Of a stretch of 64,000 nucleotides of DNA, positions 9,262-57,705 are shown one piece after another (the stretch's first letter is position 1; every line of letters begins with the position of its first letter). Made by a program: the position numbers and the translations under genes. Below the pieces are notes generated by a model, which was given only the letters and a program-made list of their open reading frames with translations, was not told where the DNA came from and did no database searches. The DNA is from Clostridia bacterium (GTDB lineage Bacteria; Bacillota; Clostridia; TANB77; CAG-508), in assembly GCA_017470645.1 (NCBI GenBank), contig JAFUYJ010000017.1, positions 5,463 to 69,462 of the forward strand, in the 5' to 3' direction.

Positions 9262-9500
9262 TATGTAGCGTAACAAGAGACTAGTAGTAAACTCCCTTTT
9301 ATTCAGAGAGATTATGGTTGGTGAGAATAATCTAAAAAAGTTTATGAATCTACTCTTTAGCTTTTAGTGAAAACTAAACCTAGTAATGCAAGGTTACAAG
9401 CATTGTTAAGATATGAAATATGTTATATACAACAATTTCATAATTAAGGTGGCACCGCGATAATTATTCGTCCTTATGAATTTTCATAAGGACGTTTTTG
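9262..9500 (+). promoter_or_regulatory. T-box riboswitch leader, serine specifier (UCU)
   Basis: AGAGA bulge (9304-9309) and GGUGAGA distal loop (~9320). Specifier GAA-UCU-A has UCU at 9349-9351. T-box sequence AAUUAAGGUGGCACCGCG is at 9442-9459. Terminator CGTCCTTATGAA/TTCATAAGGACG plus T-run at 9469-9499. serS lies downstream. Confidence 0.85.
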
Positions 9501-25334: not shown

Positions 25335-25458
25335 AAAATTAATTAAAAGTAGTAAGATGTGCATTTTTGCGAATTAATCAAGACGAAGGTGTACGTATGT
25401 ACATCGAGGTTTGATTAATGAAGCGAAAATGTGCAGATTGCTGCTTTTAATTAATTTT
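25335..25458. repeat. 124-nt extended hairpin in the rplE-rpsN spacer (right arm overlaps last 8 nt of rplE)
   Basis: Arms AAAATTAATTAAAAGTAGTAAGATGTGCATTTTTGCG... / ...CGAAAATGTGCAGATTGCTGCTTTTAATTAATTTT. Apical stem GTGTAC-GTAT-GTACAT. A third direct copy of AAATTAATTAAAAGT is at 25300-25314. Confidence 0.7.
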
Positions 25459-44573: not shown

Positions 44574-45837
44574 TTATTTCTTCATAACAATTTCATCATA
44601 CACGCTTATAGACTTTTTGCTGTCCATAGAACTCGTATCTACGCCTGCTTCTTGAAGTTCTTGAGTAGAATAATTTTCAACTATAGAATAATTATCGTTT
44701 TGTCTCAATACTTTGACATATATTTTTTCCTCATATCCTGCCCTATTTCTAATAATGTATGCTATATTACCTTCATATTGTATAGCTTTATTTGGAACCT
44801 TTAATCCCGAGTTGCTCCACCAAATAACATCAAATGCAATTTTTCTGTAATTTATTAAACTCTCAACTGATTCTTTTAATTCAAATACCAATAATGTTTC
44901 ATTTTTTTCCTCATCAGCTTTATACACAATTTCAACTGGAACCTCTGCTGAATTTGGAAGTCTGAGTTTAATATTATCACCAACTTTTGAGTTTTTTGCT
45001 TCATCTGATTTTGAAATGCAAGCAACATAACAGTTGAAGTTATTTACTATTTTTGCTTTGCTATTATTTGATGCAATAATCTGACCTGTTTTCAAATTCA
45101 GTGATTCTAGTAATTGTTTATTTAAATAACTAAAGTCCCCAACTGTCAATTTACTTTCTAAATCATCAACCTTATATGAAATAATTCCACTTTTATTAGA
45201 ATATACATATTTAGAATTTGAATTTACTTGATTTTCATACCCACTTCTTTGTTCAATTAGTTGTTGAACATAAGAGCCATTTGTTGCCAATGTACTAGCT
45301 ATTTTAGCCTTTTTATTCATTGCACTATTTATGTCTTTTTTATATTGTTCTATTTCTTGAATATCCGTATTTTCGTACACATTTTCAAGTTTTTCCTCAA
45401 TTTGAGTTTCTAACAGTTTTATATCTGAAGAAAATAATGTATTTTCATTTTGTAATGCGTCCTGTATTTGTTGATCTAATTCTTCTATTTTTTTATTTAA
45501 TTCATCTTCATTTTCCAACGAATACCTGTATATAGCCTCACCGTTAGCAACCTTTTTGCCTTCAGCTTTTAATTGAACTATTTTGCCGATTTGCCGACTC
45601 GTTTTCTATAACTTCTTCGTCCCTAATTAAATAGCCGGATACGGATTCTTCTTTATATATCTTTCCTTGTTCAACTATAAAAGTATCTGTTGGATTAGAT
45701 AATAATTTTATAAATAAAAAAATACAATAAGTCAAAAAAGCAACAGCAACAATCAATATAATTGTCATTTTTTTATTTTTTAAAGGTACCTTTTTTTCAC
45801 TTTTCTTAACCTCATTTACATTACTATTATTTTTCAC
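44574..45837 (-). pseudogene. HlyD-like membrane-fusion family protein, interrupted by a +1 frameshift (or sequencing error)
   Basis: Track ORFs 45562..45837 (TM anchor) and 44574..45518 are in different frames. The downstream frame stays open upstream to ~45597 and reads GKIVQLKAEGKKVANGEAIYRY. Deleting one A of the A4 run (forward T-run 45581-45584) fuses them. Confidence 0.6.
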
Positions 45838-46757
45838 CTTTAACTCCCTTCAAAATAATATTAATATTATTTTGCCTGTCATCTAAACCATCAAGCCAAA
45901 CTATATCTTGATTTCTTCTAAACCAAGTTAGTTGACGTTTAGCATAACGTCTAGTTTCTTGTTTAATTTTCTCCACCATTTCTTCATAATTAATTTCATT
46001 ATTTAAATAAGAAACCACTTCTTTATATCCTAATCCTTGAATTGCTGTTGGAAGTTCATCATATTTATTTATCAATGATTTAACCTCATCAATCAATCCA
46101 TTTTCTATCATAATATCTACTCTTTTATTAATTCTTTCATAGAGTTTTTCTCTGTCCATATTTATTGCAAAAACGTAGTACTCATATGGGTTTTCTTTTT
46201 TTCTAGACTCGATTTCTTGACCGTGTTTTTGTTTTTCCTGTAGAATGAAAAATTTCCAATACTCTAAAAATTCTTTTTTTATCATTTTGGCTAATTTTTT
46301 TCATTGCTTCTGAATCTATTTCTACCGCTCTTTCATATAGTGATTGTAGTCCATCTTTTTCCGCAATATCTTCAAGTTGGTTTCTATAATCCAGATCCAC
46401 TTCTAGATCATCATATTCAATTCCTTTAACTAAAGAATCTACATATAGTCCTGTTCCTCCAACAACAATAGGTGTTTTGCCTTTATTTAAAATTTCTTCT
46501 ATTGCAGTTAACGCATCTCTTTTAAAATTAGCAACACTATACCTTACAGTTGGAGAAACATTACCTATAAGATAATGTTTAACTCCATCCATTTCCTCTA
46601 TGGTTGGCTTAGCAGTTCCAATATCCATATCTTTATATATTTGCATCGAATCTGCTGAAACAATTTCGCCATTTATTCTTTTTGCTAAATCAATTGATAA
46701 TGCTGTCTTTCCAGAAGCTGTAGGACCACATATTACAATAATTTTTGGTTTTGACAT
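45827..46757 (-). pseudogene. miaA: tRNA dimethylallyltransferase MiaA, interrupted by a +1 frameshift (or sequencing error)
   Basis: The N-terminal part (GPTASGKT P-loop, 46203..46757) and C-terminal part (45827..46285) overlap in different frames. The shift lies in the A5-C-A5 tract (forward 46226-46236). Removing one A gives ...STGKTKHGQEIESRKK... Confidence 0.7.
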
Positions 46758-50246: not shown

Positions 50247-50307
50247 CAGCCCAACCAATAAAAAAAATGTAGTACATTATAGTAACTACATTTTTTTGGT
50301 TGGGCTG
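50247..50307 (-). terminator. Long hairpin/terminator that includes the 3' acceptor strand of tRNA-Gln
   Basis: CAGCCCAACCAA (50247-50258) is the reverse complement of TTGGTTGGGCTG (50296-50307, the tRNA 3' end). Inner stem ATGTAGT/ACTACAT is flanked by A8/T7 runs. Confidence 0.6.
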
Positions 50308-50371
50308 GCTAGATTCGAACTAGCGCATGTCAGAGTCAAAGTCTGATGCCTTACCGCTTGGCTACAGCCCA
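50297..50371 (-). tRNA. tRNA-Gln (anticodon UUG), CCA encoded
   Basis: Hand fold: acceptor TGGGCTG/CAGCCCA, anticodon arm TCAGA-CTTTGAC-TCTGA, T arm GCTAG-TTCGAAT-CTAGC, discriminator A then CCA. Confidence 0.9.
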
Positions 50372-50390
50372 ATGTATTAAGTTTATTTGA

Positions 50391-50468
50391 TGGGGTGGAA
50401 GATGGGTCTCGAACCCACGACCTCTGGGACCACAATCCAGCGCTCTAACCAACTGAGCTACATCCACC
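50391..50468 (-). tRNA. tRNA-His (anticodon GUG) with G-1, CCA encoded
   Basis: Hand fold: G-1 opposite C73, D arm GCTC-AGTTGGTTA-GAGC, anticodon loop TTGTGGT, T loop TTCGAGA. Irregular pairs U6.U67 and A31.C39 noted. Confidence 0.8.
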
Positions 50469-51613: not shown

Positions 51614-51681
51614 AAAGCGCTATTTTATAAGCCCTTTTCCTTTCTTAAGTTTTCTTATAAATTCTCAAAACAAACAATAAT

Positions 51682-51874
51682 CAGTAGAGTAGTAAAAATG
51701 TAGTGCTTGGATTTATATATTAAATGTAGTACGAGCGCGCAGTTTGGCACGTTTTAGTATAACCGATAAAAGGAGCACCAAACCTAAACATTTATCACAC
51801 CCAAACTCCTTTTATCTTATACTAAAACCGGCCAGTAAGCTCACGGAATTTAATATATAAATCCAAGCACTACA
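51682..51874. repeat. Nested-hairpin element copy A (27-bp unique outer stem plus conserved core)
   Basis: Outer arms 51699-51725 / 51848-51874 are perfectly complementary. Core 51726-51847 is homologous to 55194-55319. GTAGAGTAG sits at 51684-51692. Confidence 0.8.
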
Positions 51875-51897
51875 CATATTTTTTGACGGTTATAACA

Positions 51898-53667
51898 TTA
51901 GCATAAAATAGCTTTAATTCTCCTAACCCCCGCAGAACTAGCTTCCTCTTTCTTAATCTTAAAAGTTCCCAATTCAGAAGTATTAGCCACATGAGGTCCA
52001 CCGCATATTTCTAATGATACATCCCCTATTTTATACACAGTAACAATATCAGGATATCTTTCAATAAATTCACATTCAGCCCCCATTTTTACCGCTTCTT
52101 CTTTTGGCATTTCTAACCTTTCAACAGGAATAGCCATTTTAATATATTCATTTACCAAATCCTCTGCTTGTTTCTTTTGCTCATCTGTCATTTTCTCATC
52201 TTGAGTAAAGTCAAATCTCATTCTCTCTGCTGTAATATTACTTCCTCTTTGATGAACATGCGCACCTAAAACAACTTTTAATGCAGCATTCAATAGATGT
52301 GTTGCAGTATGATATTTAGTTTCCATTTCGCCAGTTGATGCTAAACCACCTTTAAATTTTTGCTCTGAACCAGCTCTTGATTTAGCTTGATGTTCTTCAA
52401 ATTTTGCTTTGAATCCATCCATATCAACAGTTAAACCTTGCTCTTTTGCAAGTTCTTCTGTTAATTCAATTGGAAATCCATATGTATCATACAATTTAAA
52501 TGCTGTATCTTTATCTATTGAACCATCTTGAATATTTTTTGTAATTTTTTCAAACTCTCTTAGTCCTTTTTCCAAAGTTCTATTGAATTTTACTTTTTCA
52601 TTTTTTAGTGCATCTAATATAAATTGTGTATTTCTTTCTAATTCTTTGTAATAAGCTTTATACTCATTTATTACAATACTTGCCAATTCTTGTTCCCAAT
52701 TAGAATCAATTTGAATATCAATTTGTTTTGCATATCTTATCATTCTTCTAATTAATCTTCTAAGAATATACCCTTGGTCTTTATTTGATGGCATTATTTT
52801 AGCATCATCACCTAAAATAATAACAACTGCTCTTATGTGATCTGCTATAATTCTTATATATTTAGTATAGTTTTCATCATCATAATTCTTTCCAGAAACT
52901 TCTTCTATTTTAGCAATTATATCTTTCCAAATTGATGATTTGTAATTATCTGTTTGTCCTTCTAAAATTGCTGTAACTCTTTCTACACCCATTCCTGTAT
53001 CAACATTTTTATTTTTTAATGGTGTAAATGTTCCATCTGGATTATGCATATATTGCATAAATACGTTGTTCCAAATTTCAACCCAATTATCATTTTCTGG
53101 ATCGAATTTTTCAGGAACTGCTTCATTACTTCTCCAATAAAAAATTTCTGTATCTGAACCACAAGGTCCTGTAGCTTCCATGTTTGGCCACCAGTTATCA
53201 TCTTCACCTAAATATGCAATTCTTTCTTCTTTAATACCTTGTTCCATCCAAATTTTAGCTGCTTCACTATCAGCTGGAATCATATCATTTCCTCTAAATA
53301 CTGTTACAGCCAATCTTTCTATTGGTATATTTAAATGTTTTGTTAATAATTCAAAACTCCATTCAATTGATTCTTTTTTGAAGTAATCTCCTAAAGACCA
53401 GTTTCCAAGCATTTCAAAAAATGTATGGTGAGTTTTATCTCCAACTTCATCTAAGTCATTTGTTCTAAAACACTTTTGAACATCTGTTAATCTTGTTCCT
53501 TCTGGATGTGGTTCACCTTTTAAGTATGGAACCAATGGTTGCATTCCAGCTGTGTTAAATAATACTGTTGGGTCATTTTCTGGTATTACTGGTGCGCTTG
53601 GAATTATTTTATGTCCTTTACTTTCAAAAAATTTTAAATATGTATCTTTTAAATTTAAGCTTTCCAT
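51898..53667 (-). CDS. alaS: Alanine--tRNA ligase, short form (589 aa; no C-Ala domain, minimal editing core)
   Basis: N-terminal AlaRS blocks (FNTAGMQP, FFEMLGNWS, GMGVERV). C-terminal HTATHLL (HxxxH) and CGGPH (CxxxH). The protein ends ~30 aa later. ATG 53667 follows RBS GAAGGAG. Confidence 0.85.
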   Translation of the reverse strand: MESLNLKDTYLKFFESKGHKIIPSAPVIPENDPTVLFNTAGMQPLVPYLKGEPHPEGTRLTDVQKCFRTNDLDEVGDKTHHTFFEMLGNWSLGDYFKKESIEWSFELLTKHLNIPIERLAVTVFRGNDMIPADSEAAKIWMEQGIKEERIAYLGEDDNWWPNMEATGPCGSDTEIFYWRSNEAVPEKFDPENDNWVEIWNNVFMQYMHNPDGTFTPLKNKNVDTGMGVERVTAILEGQTDNYKSSIWKDIIAKIEEVSGKNYDDENYTKYIRIIADHIRAVVIILGDDAKIMPSNKDQGYILRRLIRRMIRYAKQIDIQIDSNWEQELASIVINEYKAYYKELERNTQFILDALKNEKVKFNRTLEKGLREFEKITKNIQDGSIDKDTAFKLYDTYGFPIELTEELAKEQGLTVDMDGFKAKFEEHQAKSRAGSEQKFKGGLASTGEMETKYHTATHLLNAALKVVLGAHVHQRGSNITAERMRFDFTQDEKMTDEQKKQAEDLVNEYIKMAIPVERLEMPKEEAVKMGAECEFIERYPDIVTVYKIGDVSLEICGGPHVANTSELGTFKIKKEEASSAGVRRIKAILC

Positions 53668-53761
53668 TATATCTCCTTCTTCAGTTGTGAGCGTAGTTAT
53701 ACGCATCTACCAACTCTTATTTTATCAATTAAAATCCTTTATAATTATATCTCAAAAATAT

Positions 53762-55054
53762 CTATTTTGCAATACTTCCAATCAAATGCATTCTATCATT
53801 TTTTTCTACTTTTACATTAACGATTTTATTTTCTAGATTATCACCTTTTGCCCACACTTCAATATAATTTTTAGTATGTCCTTTGTAGTAATCCCCATCT
53901 TTTTCTTCAAATAAAACTTCTACTATTTTATCAACATACTCAGAATTATACTTTTCTTCATTCTCGTCAGATAATCCCAAAAGTACTTTGCTTCTTTGTT
54001 CTTTAATAGAACCATCAATTTGATTTGGCATTACAGCAGCTTTCGTACCTTTTCTCTGAGAATATTTAAAAATGTGCATTTTGTAGAAAGCAATTTTTTT
54101 CAAAAATTCATAAGTTGCATTAAATTCATCATCTGTCTCTCCTGGAAATCCAACAATAACATCTGTTGTTAAAGCTGCATTTGGAAATGCTTTTCTAAGA
54201 AGTTTCGTTCCATCTTCAAACTCTTTACAAGTATATCTTCTATTCATTCTTCTTAAAGTTTCATCACAACCACTTTGTAATGAAAGATGAAAATGATCAC
54301 ATATTTTATCTAATTTAGCCAATCTTGAAACAAACTCGTCTGTAATTATTGTTGGCTCTATTGACCCTAAACGAATTCTTTTTAATCCATCAATTTTATT
54401 TAATTCTTCTAATAAATCTATTAAAGTAATCTCATAATTAAAATCTTTTCCATAAGATGCAATATGAATTCCAGTAATTACAATTTCTTGCATGCCGTTA
54501 TCCACAATTTGTTCAACTTCGCTGATAATATTTTCTATTTTTCTGCTTCTAACTCTTCCACGAGCAAAAGGAATTATACAATATGAACAAAATCTATCAC
54601 AACCATCTTGAATTTTAACAACAGCTCTAGTCTTCTCTGTATATGTAGTTGTTCCAAACTCAACATACTCTTTTTTGTGCATTACATCAGAAATTATTGC
54701 ATTCTTCTCATTTTGATAATTCTCTATAATTTCAACAATATCTTTTTTCTCATTATTTCCAATTATCAAATCTATATCATCAATCTTCTCTAATTCATCC
54801 TTACCAACCTGTGCATAACACCCACACGCAACTAAAACCGCTTCTGGATTAATTTCCTTAACCCTTCTTAACATCTGCCTAGACTTTCTATCAGCAATAT
54901 TAGTAACAGTACAAGTATTTACAATATACACATCCGCAACATCAGTAAATTCAACTACTTCATATCCATTTTCTATAAACTCCTGAGACATCGCATTTGT
55001 TTCATACTGATTAACCTTACATCCCAGCGAAATAAAAGCAACTTTTTTACCCAA
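53762..55054 (-). CDS. mtaB: tRNA t6A37 methylthiotransferase MtaB (radical SAM MiaB family)
   Basis: KVAFISLGCKVNQYE N-terminus, radical SAM CDRFCSYC, TRAM-like C-terminus. TTG start at 55054 follows RBS AAAGGAGAGG; the track ORF is over-extended to 55174. Confidence 0.85.
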   Translation of the reverse strand: MGKKVAFISLGCKVNQYETNAMSQEFIENGYEVVEFTDVADVYIVNTCTVTNIADRKSRQMLRRVKEINPEAVLVACGCYAQVGKDELEKIDDIDLIIGNNEKKDIVEIIENYQNEKNAIISDVMHKKEYVEFGTTTYTEKTRAVVKIQDGCDRFCSYCIIPFARGRVRSRKIENIISEVEQIVDNGMQEIVITGIHIASYGKDFNYEITLIDLLEELNKIDGLKRIRLGSIEPTIITDEFVSRLAKLDKICDHFHLSLQSGCDETLRRMNRRYTCKEFEDGTKLLRKAFPNAALTTDVIVGFPGETDDEFNATYEFLKKIAFYKMHIFKYSQRKGTKAAVMPNQIDGSIKEQRSKVLLGLSDENEEKYNSEYVDKIVEVLFEEKDGDYYKGHTKNYIEVWAKGDNLENKIVNVKVEKNDRMHLIGSIAK

Positions 55055-55091
55055 TTTTACCTCTCCTTTTATTTTACATAATTTACTCTCT

Positions 55092-55120
55092 ATTATATAT
55101 TCAAAACCCCTATATGTCAA
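55092..55120 (-). promoter_or_regulatory. Sigma-A consensus promoter of mtaB
   Basis: Minus strand reads TTGACA, 17 nt, TATAAT, immediately downstream of repeat copy B. Confidence 0.7.
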
Positions 55121-55144
55121 CACAAACACACTCATTTTTTCATA

Positions 55145-55358
55145 CTGTAGAGTAGCAGAAACATAAAAATACAAAAAGCAAATAATATTAACAACGAAGT
55201 ACGAGGCGCGCAGCTTGGCACGTTTTAGTATAACTGATAAAAGGAGCTCTAAGCCCGAACATTTATCGCACCCAAACTCCTTTTATCTTATACTAAAACC
55301 GGCCAGTAAGCCTACGTAGTGTTAATATTATTTGTTTTTTGTATTTTTATGTTTTTGC
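55145..55358. repeat. Nested-hairpin element copy B (39-bp unique outer stem plus conserved core)
   Basis: Outer arms 55155-55193 / 55320-55358 pair over 39 positions with only two G.T mispairs. Core is 55194-55319. GTAGAGTAG at 55147-55155. Confidence 0.8.
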
Positions 55359-55373
55359 GGCCACCTTCAACAA

Positions 55374-56687
55374 CTAATCCCCATAAGCCGGCACCACATA
55401 CATATCAGAATCCATCTTCTGCACAACCGCCTTATAAGTCTCATACACACTCTTATAATTAGACAAATACTTACCAATATTCTCATTACTAAACGGAACA
55501 ACCTTAAAATTACTCCAACTACTCTTATTATAAGAAGTAAATATCAACTCATTCTTAACATCATCAATTTTAATTTCCGTCTTTCCATTCTTAACAGTTT
55601 TAGTTATATTAACAGAAGTCATTAACCCAACCATCTTATTATAATTTTGATCTTGCAACTGCGCAGAAACAAAATTTCCTAAAGAATAAATTACTAATGT
55701 ATCATCAATCCAAGTAACCGGTTGAATTACATGTGGATGTGCCCCAATCACTATATCAACATCATTATCAGCCAAAAACTTAGCAGAATCTTCTTGATAC
55801 TTTGTTGGAGTATGTGTATATTCAACTCCCCAGTGCATTGCCACCATTAATACATCAACATCTCCTCTAACTGCTTCAATGTCTTTTTTTACTTGCTCTT
55901 TATATGCTTGATAATCTTTATCTTTGCTTGGATCATTAATACTTAAATCTGTTGGCCAAACATTAACCAAATACTCTTTTCCTTTAGGAACTGCTATTCC
56001 ATTTGTTCCATATGTATAATTAAGCATAGCATATTTTATACCATTTTTTTCTCTTATTTGAACTTTATTTCTTTCTTCTTCAGATGTGTATGTTCCAACA
56101 GCTAAAACTTCATCTTCATGTTTTTTCCAATATTCAATAGAAGCTAAAATCGCTTTTTCTCCTCTATCCATTGTATGATTTGTTGCTAAACTTACTATAT
56201 TGAATCCAGCATCAAGCATAGCATCTCCTGCTTCTTGAGGTGAATTAAATGTTGGATAATCTGATACTCCTAGCTCACTTCCACCTAATACTGTTTCTTG
56301 ATTATAGTATGCCAAATCATAATCTTTAACTTCTTCTTTTATATATTCTATAATTGGTTTAAAATCATATTGATTTTTTCCGCCACCTGCTAATCTGTTA
56401 GCATCTTTATATACACTACTATGAATTAAGTTATCACCAACCATTACTAATGATACGCTTGTTGTTTTTTCTTCTTGTGTATTAGAAGCTTTCGTTTCTT
56501 GAAGCTTTTCCATACTAATACCAAGTAAATTACTACTTACACCATTATTGTTATTATTATCATTATGATTCATTAATTTAACCGTACCATAAATTGTACC
56601 TATAACTAAAGCAATTAATATCAATAGCACAATCCACAATTTAACCACTACTTGTTTCTTTGTTCTTCTCTTTCTCTTCTTTCCCAT
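55374..56687 (-). CDS. CapA/PGA-synthesis family metallophosphoesterase-like protein, membrane-anchored
   Basis: N-terminal K/R-rich segment plus TM; MVGDN, ATNH and HWGVEY blocks typical of CapA family. Confidence 0.8.
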   Translation of the reverse strand: MGKKRKRRTKKQVVVKLWIVLLILIALVIGTIYGTVKLMNHNDNNNNNGVSSNLLGISMEKLQETKASNTQEEKTTSVSLVMVGDNLIHSSVYKDANRLAGGGKNQYDFKPIIEYIKEEVKDYDLAYYNQETVLGGSELGVSDYPTFNSPQEAGDAMLDAGFNIVSLATNHTMDRGEKAILASIEYWKKHEDEVLAVGTYTSEEERNKVQIREKNGIKYAMLNYTYGTNGIAVPKGKEYLVNVWPTDLSINDPSKDKDYQAYKEQVKKDIEAVRGDVDVLMVAMHWGVEYTHTPTKYQEDSAKFLADNDVDIVIGAHPHVIQPVTWIDDTLVIYSLGNFVSAQLQDQNYNKMVGLMTSVNITKTVKNGKTEIKIDDVKNELIFTSYNKSSWSNFKVVPFSNENIGKYLSNYKSVYETYKAVVQKMDSDMYVVPAYGD

Positions 56688-57640: not shown

Positions 57641-57705
57641 GTTTTAGGGACTACTTACAAAAAACATCAAGTCTTTGATATTTTTTGTAAGTAGTCCCTA
57701 AAAAC
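57641..57705 (+). terminator. Long (24-bp) perfect hairpin after the SH3b-SCP gene
   Basis: GTTTTAGGGACTACTTACAAAAAA, 16-nt loop, TTTTTTGTAAGTAGTCCCTAAAA(A)C. Confidence 0.6.

Follow-up and report, generated by a model that had tools for sequence, protein, structure and literature searches.

Large intergenic hairpin repeats, probably mobile and apparently new to the literature, in uncultured Clostridia of the rumen and gut

Results

The window, by which we mean the whole stretch of 64,000 nucleotides that was analysed, has a G+C content of 30% and comes from the metagenome-assembled genome (MAG) of an uncultured member of the Clostridia; its strand skew is strong and uniform. In plus coordinates a HIT gene is followed by one copy (copy A) of the element described here, a 602-aa AlaRS-like gene, mtaB, a further copy (copy B) and a capA-like gene. 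The genes around the two copies are all housekeeping genes on the minus strand, and both copies have the same orientation, opposite to that of these genes. The capA-like open reading frame was confirmed to stop at 55374, and so was the perfect consensus promoter that the original prediction had placed next to copy B for mtaB (TTGACA-17-TATAAT, 55092-55120, minus strand), which matches at 12 of 12 positions and lies outside the element. Starting mtaB at the TTG codon at 55052-55054 (minus strand), as had been proposed, gives a protein of 430 aa, the length of the closest homologues, and the sequence GGAGAGG is found 5 nt upstream of this codon. The placement of copy B between the capA-like stop codon and the consensus mtaB promoter is supported.

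A promoter-like sequence on the plus strand (TTTACA-17-TATATT, 55073-55101) stands back to back with the mtaB promoter and points into copy B; promoter-like sequences were not enriched in the region near copy B, and copy A had no counterpart of the one at 55073-55101. The AlaRS-like gene beside copy A (51898-53706, minus strand) codes for 602 aa in the window and 589 aa in relatives; the catalytic and second additional domains are present and the C-terminal part is absent, a short form that is conserved across the clade. Elsewhere in the window, miaA (45827-46757, minus strand) is apparently divided into two ORFs, also in the L003 lineage; L010 has it as one gene of 305 aa. A T-box leader scoring 108.9 bits and a pair of tRNA genes were found at 9262-9478 (plus strand) and 50300-50467 (minus strand). 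A 29-bp hairpin, 97% perfect and with a 4-nt loop, lies at 57642-57703 between the CAP/SH3 gene and that of the POR gamma subunit and is outside the family described below; an inverted repeat at 25335-25458, with 36-nt arms that are 81% complementary and 52 nt apart, gave no match to the family covariance model R1.

The original prediction described copy B as a nested hairpin whose outer arms pair over 39 positions with two G.T mispairs, and this was reproduced. The 39-nt arms at 55155-55193 and 55320-55358 (plus strand) are 95% complementary and 126 nt apart, the only two positions that are not Watson-Crick being G55158.T55355 and G55178.T55335, and shuffles of the window contained no equivalent of this arm match. 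The RNA fold of 55145-55365 (221 nt) has an energy of -90.6 kcal/mol against -39.9 +/- 3.8 kcal/mol for shuffled sequences (z = -13.4). The nested hairpin of about 200 bases between the capA-like gene and mtaB is confirmed as a real element.

Taken whole, copy B extends over 55143-55373 on the plus strand, from a few nucleotides upstream of a GTAGAGTAG tag to the end of a tail past a CGG; these ends are approximate and were set from the family boundaries (45-47 copies) and from the comparison of filled and empty sites. The tag, at 55147-55155, is the best-conserved flank motif of the family. It is followed by the 5' arm of the outer stem, which has related arms with compensated changes at the orthologous site in L013 and L190. 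The 5' side of the conserved core (55194-55219) consists of ACGAAGTAC, the helix strand P2 (AGGC) and GCGCAGCTTGGC, and leads into the 5' strand of the inner hairpin (55216-55246), a "type 1" module of the form GGCACGTTTTAGTATAA..GATAAAAGGAG. The apical loop (55247-55276) is about 30 nt long, rich in A, C and T and poor in G, and is the fastest-changing part. After the 3' strand of the inner hairpin (55277-55305) come the 3' side of the core (55302-55319), which reads GCCAGTAAG, P2' (GCCT) and ACGTAG, and the 3' arm of the outer stem with its (C)GG bulge and the tail CCACCTTCAACAA; all of these lie on the plus strand.

Copy A occupies 51681-51897 on the plus strand, with its tag at 51684-51692, outer arms at 51699-51725 and 51848-51874, and CGG at 51887-51889. 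Its 27-nt arms are 100% complementary (27/27). Model R1 scores copy A at 151.8 bits and copy B, over 55175-55341, at 144.6 bits. The two copies, 3.5 kb apart, have in common a core of about 120 nt with about 91% identity and the type 1 inner module, and the sequences of their outer arms are unrelated. The six substitutions in the terminal loop and the CC/CT bulge were correctly described as differences between the copies, to which we add CAGTTTGG versus CAGCTTGG. A compensated indel in the core helix had also been proposed (GAGC/GCTC in copy A, (G)AGGC/GCCT in copy B). Copy B does have the extra G on the 5' side, and a 4-bp helix is kept either way; the 3' side, however, is of equal length in the two copies (GCTCACG in A, GCCTACG in B), so that the change there is a C/T swap and not an inserted C.

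The original prediction did not foresee that copy B belongs to a repeat family, apparently mobile, with many scattered members. A consensus was taken from orthologous loci, fetched via homologues of MtaB, and used for a pattern scan of sequence collections from which chance matches in high-G+C genomes were dropped. Copies A and B were found to belong to a family with at least 61 distinct cores of one architecture, from cow rumen and other rumen and gut metagenomes and from three Clostridia MAG species, of sheep rumen, rabbit and Hadza human gut. A first scan of genomes with an exact 20-mer found nothing, and a gapped genome scan returned mostly chance matches in high-G+C genomes, with at least six true loci among the matches listed. 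Model R1 was built from 59 of the distinct cores, and a search with it revealed more copies in a number of loci and, in the window, just copies A and B. Copies were densest in the 10.8-kb locus L179, which has three, and on contig CAMPBM010000017, with three inside 16 kb. When the copy through which a locus had been retrieved is left out of account, the density is about one copy per 30-40 kb, which by extrapolation would correspond to several dozen to a hundred copies (about 60-100) per genome.

Among the MtaB-homologue loci, the 99% strain L003 has both copies, the 88% relative (L006-L009) has an element in the alaS-HIT spacer and the 86% relative (L013) has one in the capA-mtaB spacer; L010, L014 and L016 have short spacers. 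No Rfam 15 family reached its gathering threshold in the window and 15 other loci, and E-value scans of copies A and B gave only noise (13-22 bits). Queries with the core and with a canonical full copy gave no matches, or matches at chance level, in plasmid and phage collections, and the viral contigs searched held no relative of the element. A search of a limited literature library for the motifs and for reports of REPs or MITEs in Firmicutes found no match. This family of large intergenic hairpins in uncultured Clostridia of the rumen and gut seems not to have been described before.

Members range from 230 to 340 bp, with stems of 27-77 bp per arm, and have a shared plan of a GTAGAGTAG tag, an outer stem of 40-80 bp, an asymmetric core, usually an inner hairpin, a loop of about 30 nt, and a 3' CGG bulge and tail. 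Read in the plus orientation of the window, the element starts with (T)TGTAGAGTAG and enters the outer stem, which has TCAAA at its start, variable boxes mid-way and ATATATTAACA at its end. The junction that follows reads AYGGAG-YAC-A and is succeeded by the 4-5 bp helix P2, by GCGCAG-N-TTGGC and by an inner hairpin of about 25 bp, which is of two sequence types, with its loop of about 30 nt. The 3' half runs through GCCAG-Y-AAG, P2', RCG and a returning arm that ends in TTTGA to the CGG bulge and the tail CTAnnTGCAAAAG. The conserved asymmetric core is therefore GCGCAG-N-TTGGC ... GCCAG-Y-AAG, and the invariance of its two parts is partly an artefact, since the search pattern required these motifs.

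The GTAGAGTAG motif, which holds two overlapping GTAG-type tags, stands directly before the stem and is 70-99% conserved per position in 45 copies; upstream of it and beyond the tail there is no conservation across 45-47 copies. The ends of the element, TTGTAGAGTAG|TCAAA... and ...TTTGA|CGG|CTAnnTGCAAAAG, are imperfect inverted repeats, since the 3' end, when reverse-complemented to CTTTTGCAnnTAG-CCG-TCAAA, is similar to the 5' end, TTGTAGAGTAG-TCAAA, and a few copies have the 3'-type end on both sides. Variants include a short form in which the core lacks the inner hairpin and a long-arm subfamily whose arms are perfect over up to 77 bp, with a folding energy of -157.7 kcal/mol. The mtaB-alaS spacer of L016 (11341-11538), and also of L017 and L018, holds another nested hairpin, whose arms of 52 nt are 98% complementary. 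Its 5' tag is again GAGTAG, CGA stands on the 3' side and the core is unrelated and undetected by R1, which suggests that the design of a tag plus a long stem is common to more than one family.

On the plus strand the loops are composed of 46% A, 29% T, 23% C and 1.9% G, and by inspection the four copies of reverse orientation also have little G in the loop when it is read along the element. Far from being random, the loops have semi-conserved centres (AAACATTTA or AAGTCTTT) and CCNAAA at the 3' end. The idea that they are phage-derived spacers, as in a memory of the CRISPR type, was rejected, as a search with 43 loops together against 50,697 phage records produced nothing with E <= 1; an antisense role towards nearby genes was rejected because the best match in the window was 12 nt, against 11.3 nt by chance. 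There is no conserved reading frame, and a small-protein gene was rejected because any one frame is open in at most 21 of the 59 copies. A retron ncRNA (msr-msd) was excluded, as the neighbours are HIT, AlaRS-like, MtaB and CapA-like genes and there is no reverse transcriptase. An attC site, a sigma-54 promoter, a k-turn and a sarcin-ricin motif were rejected by inspection, as was an invertible promoter, no orthologous copy being inverted.

The helices are kept by compensatory change throughout the family. In the alignment of 59 sequences 95.8% of pair cells were standard, against 80.5% with partners shuffled and about 40% with partners slid, and cells with double changes numbered 456 against 146 expected. 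Compensatory change was seen in 26 of 43 pairs, and none of 500 shuffles reached the observed values. In the outer stem of 38 full-length copies, 2238 of 2345 cells were Watson-Crick. The small helices of the junction covary (UA 40 / CG 19, UA 33 / CG 26, AU 31 / GC 27), and P2, the helix that had been singled out from copies A and B, covaries across the family (AU 31 / GC 27 and GC 38 / AU 11 / CG 2), so that the claim of compensatory changes preserving the helices holds family-wide.

The proposal that it is the plus strand that folds, based on an asymmetry of G.T over A.C mispairs, fared less well. In the consensus helices of the larger set G.U-type mispairs did outnumber the A.C type, by 61 to 12, with 28 of the 61 falling in a single G-Y column (GC 30 / GU 28) and the copies not being independent; a cruder count of arm against arm was reversed (A.C 93, G.T 58). 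One of the two mispairs in copy B, G55158, is a recent uncompensated A-to-G change, as the 99% strain L003 has A at this position. Folding energies did not favour the plus strand, with values of -90.6 (plus) and -94.7 (minus) kcal/mol for copy B and -77.3 and -76.9 kcal/mol for copy A. The nested hairpin with its compensatory changes stands; folding specifically as a plus-strand transcript is only weakly supported. The clearest strand signal is the composition of the apical loop, whose skew fits either selection for an unstructured loop on the plus strand or loss of cytosine on an exposed minus strand.

Comparison of relatives gave examples of both gain and decay. The copy in L155 is a clean insert of about 270 bp relative to L014, with flanks 94% identical, and relative to the window, both of which are empty at this site. 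The edges of the insert lie a few nucleotides outside the tag and just past the tail, and only TTA or TA is shared at the L155/L014 junctions. Direct repeats of 8-9 nt flank the copies in L105 and L167, and flanking repeats were overall no better than those of shuffled pairings. A 3' remnant of the copy A element (..CTACACAACCTTTAGTTTTGACGGCTA) is present at 13260-13300 of L014, in an otherwise short alaS-HIT spacer, which indicates loss by internal deletion, and L144 retains a stem-base remnant left by internal deletion.

Exchange of parts was also seen. Each locus has outer arms of its own, which persist in the orthologues with differences that are compensated; the copy A arm recurs in L006 and L007, and the copy B arm is related to that of L013. 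The type of inner module, on the other hand, differs at orthologous sites, copy A of the window being type 1 and its counterparts in L006 and L007 type 2. At the pfl site the module of L144 is unlike that of L133 and L188, and elsewhere L138 is type 1 and L179 is of the short type. Loops or central segments have been replaced between relatives with 90-99% identical flanks, as in copy A of the window versus L003, L138 versus L184, and L189 versus L194, where both the loops and the mid-arms were replaced. These patterns fit gene conversion among dispersed copies, which would homogenise the cores within a genome and leave the outer arms locus-specific. Many copies are old and stable rather than recently mobile, since orthologous copies persist between lineages whose MtaB proteins are 86-88% identical.

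No Y1 transposase was detected by tblastn in 741 kb of flanking sequence with approximate IS608 TnpA and E. coli RAYT queries. The fetched loci (8-21 kb) contained no recurrent transposase-like ORF beside the copies, the recurrent neighbours looking like SufS, Hsp33, Dtd, GatB and sigma factors, and no complete parent element in which such ends enclose a transposase gene. A group II intron was found between two copies of the element in a sheep-rumen MAG contig (L042, 2421-3020, minus strand). The relatives also carry differing islands downstream of a sortase gene (L006 and L012, about 14.8-16.7 kb; L008, 15.7-20.1 kb), with an integrase and an HTH protein in some and a resolvase, TnpV, MobC and a relaxase in another; this region, near tRNA genes, looks like an integration hot spot.

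The position of the element relative to genes is not random. When sites were grouped into 48 clusters, 17 had both neighbouring genes running against the element and 3 had both running with it (p = 0.003). Of 35 informative sites, 28 had a gene of the opposite strand next to the 3' end of the element, with its stop codon adjoining (28 versus 7, p = 0.0005), and the usual distance of the element from the stop codon was 2-15 nt. Some downstream genes begin only about 17-19 nt past the element and one copy lies between pflB and pflA, from which we infer that transcription runs through the element in the minus sense and meets no strong terminator. There is no T tract after the stem on either strand, and a terminator scan found nothing for the whole element. 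In L010, a relative that lacks copy B, the corresponding spacer holds a canonical terminator.

Discussion

Two groups of known repeats resemble the Clostridia family most closely. REPs associated with RAYT proteins have as their hallmark a GTAG tag 5' of a palindrome, occur as dimers that form larger hairpins, and lie mainly downstream of genes; a survey reports tagged REPs in eight phyla, with Firmicutes unmentioned (PMC3733652, PMC3479197, PMC3116915). Like REPs and REPINs, the elements described here are extragenic, non-coding and present in high copy number, mostly downstream of genes and between co-directional or convergent ORFs, with an unpaired GT(A/G)G tag 5' of the palindrome, a whole unit that forms one long hairpin and compensatory changes in the stem, and the likeness extends to gene conversion among copies and long persistence in lineages (PMC3733652, PMC3116915, PMC3479197). 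They differ in lacking a short palindromic unit, being 230-340 nt long where a REP has 20-40 nt and a REPIN about 100 nt, and their arms are not obviously two self-folding REPs, no REP-like sub-hairpin being seen by inspection. They differ further in the large asymmetric core, the 30-nt G-free loop, the 3' CGG bulge and tail, the absence of a mirrored tag, the Clostridia host and the absence of a RAYT gene linked to the elements.

With the hairpin-forming MITEs (Correia/CREE of Neisseria, ERIC/IRU of enterobacteria, RUP and BOX of pneumococcus) the family has in common that its members are discrete, non-coding, intergenic insertions with inverted ends, which are present or absent at otherwise identical sites (L155 versus L014) and decay by internal deletion. 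Those MITEs are co-transcribed as mRNA hairpins that affect processing and stability. They are, however, only 100-160 bp long and conserved mainly in their terminal inverted repeats, whereas the internal structured core is the most constrained part here, and for them the target duplication is plain (TA for Correia and RUP) and the parent IS families have been identified. The long, imperfect, orientation-specific hairpins of ssoA-type origins and integron attC sites, with conserved unpaired bases in a variable stem, are also similar in form; these occur on plasmids or in cassette arrays at one or few per replicon, unlike elements dispersed among chromosomal housekeeping genes, and no RSB/CS-6 or R/L box consensus was visible in the element on inspection.

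We therefore favour, with a little better than even confidence, the view that copies A and B are non-autonomous palindromic intergenic repeats of a REP/REPIN-like or hairpin MITE-like kind that are co-transcribed with their neighbours. Such an element would be moved in trans, now or formerly, by an enzyme encoded elsewhere, which may recognise the GTAG-type tag together with the folded stem and core of one strand, much as RAYT or Y1 enzymes do with GTAG-tagged REPs. Inner modules and loops would be exchanged by gene conversion, with the core homogenised in each genome and the arms remaining locus-specific. Copy B of the window would be read through from the capA-like gene, giving an RNA with a hairpin of about 100 bp that could act as a natural substrate for RNase III and as a barrier to 3'-exonucleases ahead of the separate mtaB promoter; it would take the place that an ordinary terminator has in a relative. 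Against a mobile repeat count the negative search of the flanks for a mobilising enzyme, the age and stability of many copies, and the conserved, asymmetric, unpaired interior and the G-poor loop, the last two of which a purely selfish repeat does not obviously need, and because the core and loop exceed such needs, explanations in terms of a functional RNA or of single-stranded DNA stay alive.

That the element is a family of structured RNAs serving the host is less likely. RNase III would cut the outer stem as a processing stem, and the core with its G-free loop would either be released as a small RNA or work in cis as a domain of a 3'-UTR or of an intercistronic region, and would bind protein or pair with G-rich targets such as ribosome-binding sites. 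The strong covariation in every helix, the conserved and asymmetric bulges and internal loops, and the semi-conserved loop centres with their 3' CCNAAA all point in this direction, as do the loops that are nearly free of G on the plus strand even in copies of the minority orientation, the excess of G.U-type over A.C-type mispairs on that strand (one G-Y column included), the short variants that keep the core helix and a G-poor loop without the inner hairpin, and the biased orientation relative to transcription. Yet the strand that resembles an RNA is antisense to the neighbouring genes at about 80% of sites, the element has no promoter, and its extrapolated copy number, insertion polymorphism and decay remnants are those of a repeat and unlike those of a gene family. 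Complementarity between the loops and the window is no greater than chance, the phage records gave no match to them, no Rfam relative was found, and folding energies are equal on both strands. The same bias in orientation could equally be relative to replication, with about 80% of sites in agreement, and this figure is near the expected share of leading-strand genes in Firmicutes. The element might then be a cis-acting chromosomal structure of single-stranded DNA, folded on one strand during replication, such as a priming, restart or recombination site or the site of a structure-specific protein, and dispersed by gene conversion rather than transposition. We think this improbable. The strong, uniform strand skew of the window would suit it, the loop being an extreme of the usual skew (no C on the gene-sense strand, and T over A) as if it were exposed, and templated repair within the palindrome could keep the arms near-perfect without selection. 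But if genes are co-oriented with replication, the G.T-tolerant plus strand is the leading-strand template, which is unexposed at forks; the loops of the four reversed copies are likewise short of G when read along the element; the L155 copy was inserted cleanly into a new site; and no known chromosomal function needs about 100 such sites.

An oversized intrinsic or bidirectional terminator that ends the capA-like transcription unit, with copy A as a chance paralogue, would account for the place of copy B directly after a stop codon, where L010 has its canonical terminator, and for the A-run and T-run at the base of the stem. This is very improbable, as the expected T tract is missing from both strands and the scan found no terminator, and as transcription has to pass the copy between pflB and pflA and those from which the next start codon is 17-19 nt away. 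Dozens of related copies with a conserved core that is not that of a terminator contradict it as well.

Much work has been done on the dispersed palindromic repeats of Proteobacteria, very little on those of Firmicutes, and none on those of the uncultured Clostridia that are dominant in rumen and gut communities. The family described here is unusually large and structured, with its asymmetric core, extreme loop composition, locus-specific arms and mobile modules, and is tractable for studying how repeats are recognised and moved, how long perfect hairpins are kept up and what effects they have on the mRNAs that carry them. Its copies can mislead gene callers, as with the over-extended mtaB ORF, as well as operon predictions and assemblies, and could serve as strain markers. 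We would also entertain, with considerable doubt, that the core and the G-free loop of about 30 nt form a working nucleic-acid module, in which case the family may represent a persistent REPIN-RAYT-like system in Firmicutes built on a structured 250-nt hairpin, or a large set of small RNAs embedded in hairpins and excised by RNase III from read-through or antisense transcripts, with exchangeable loops for display or targeting.
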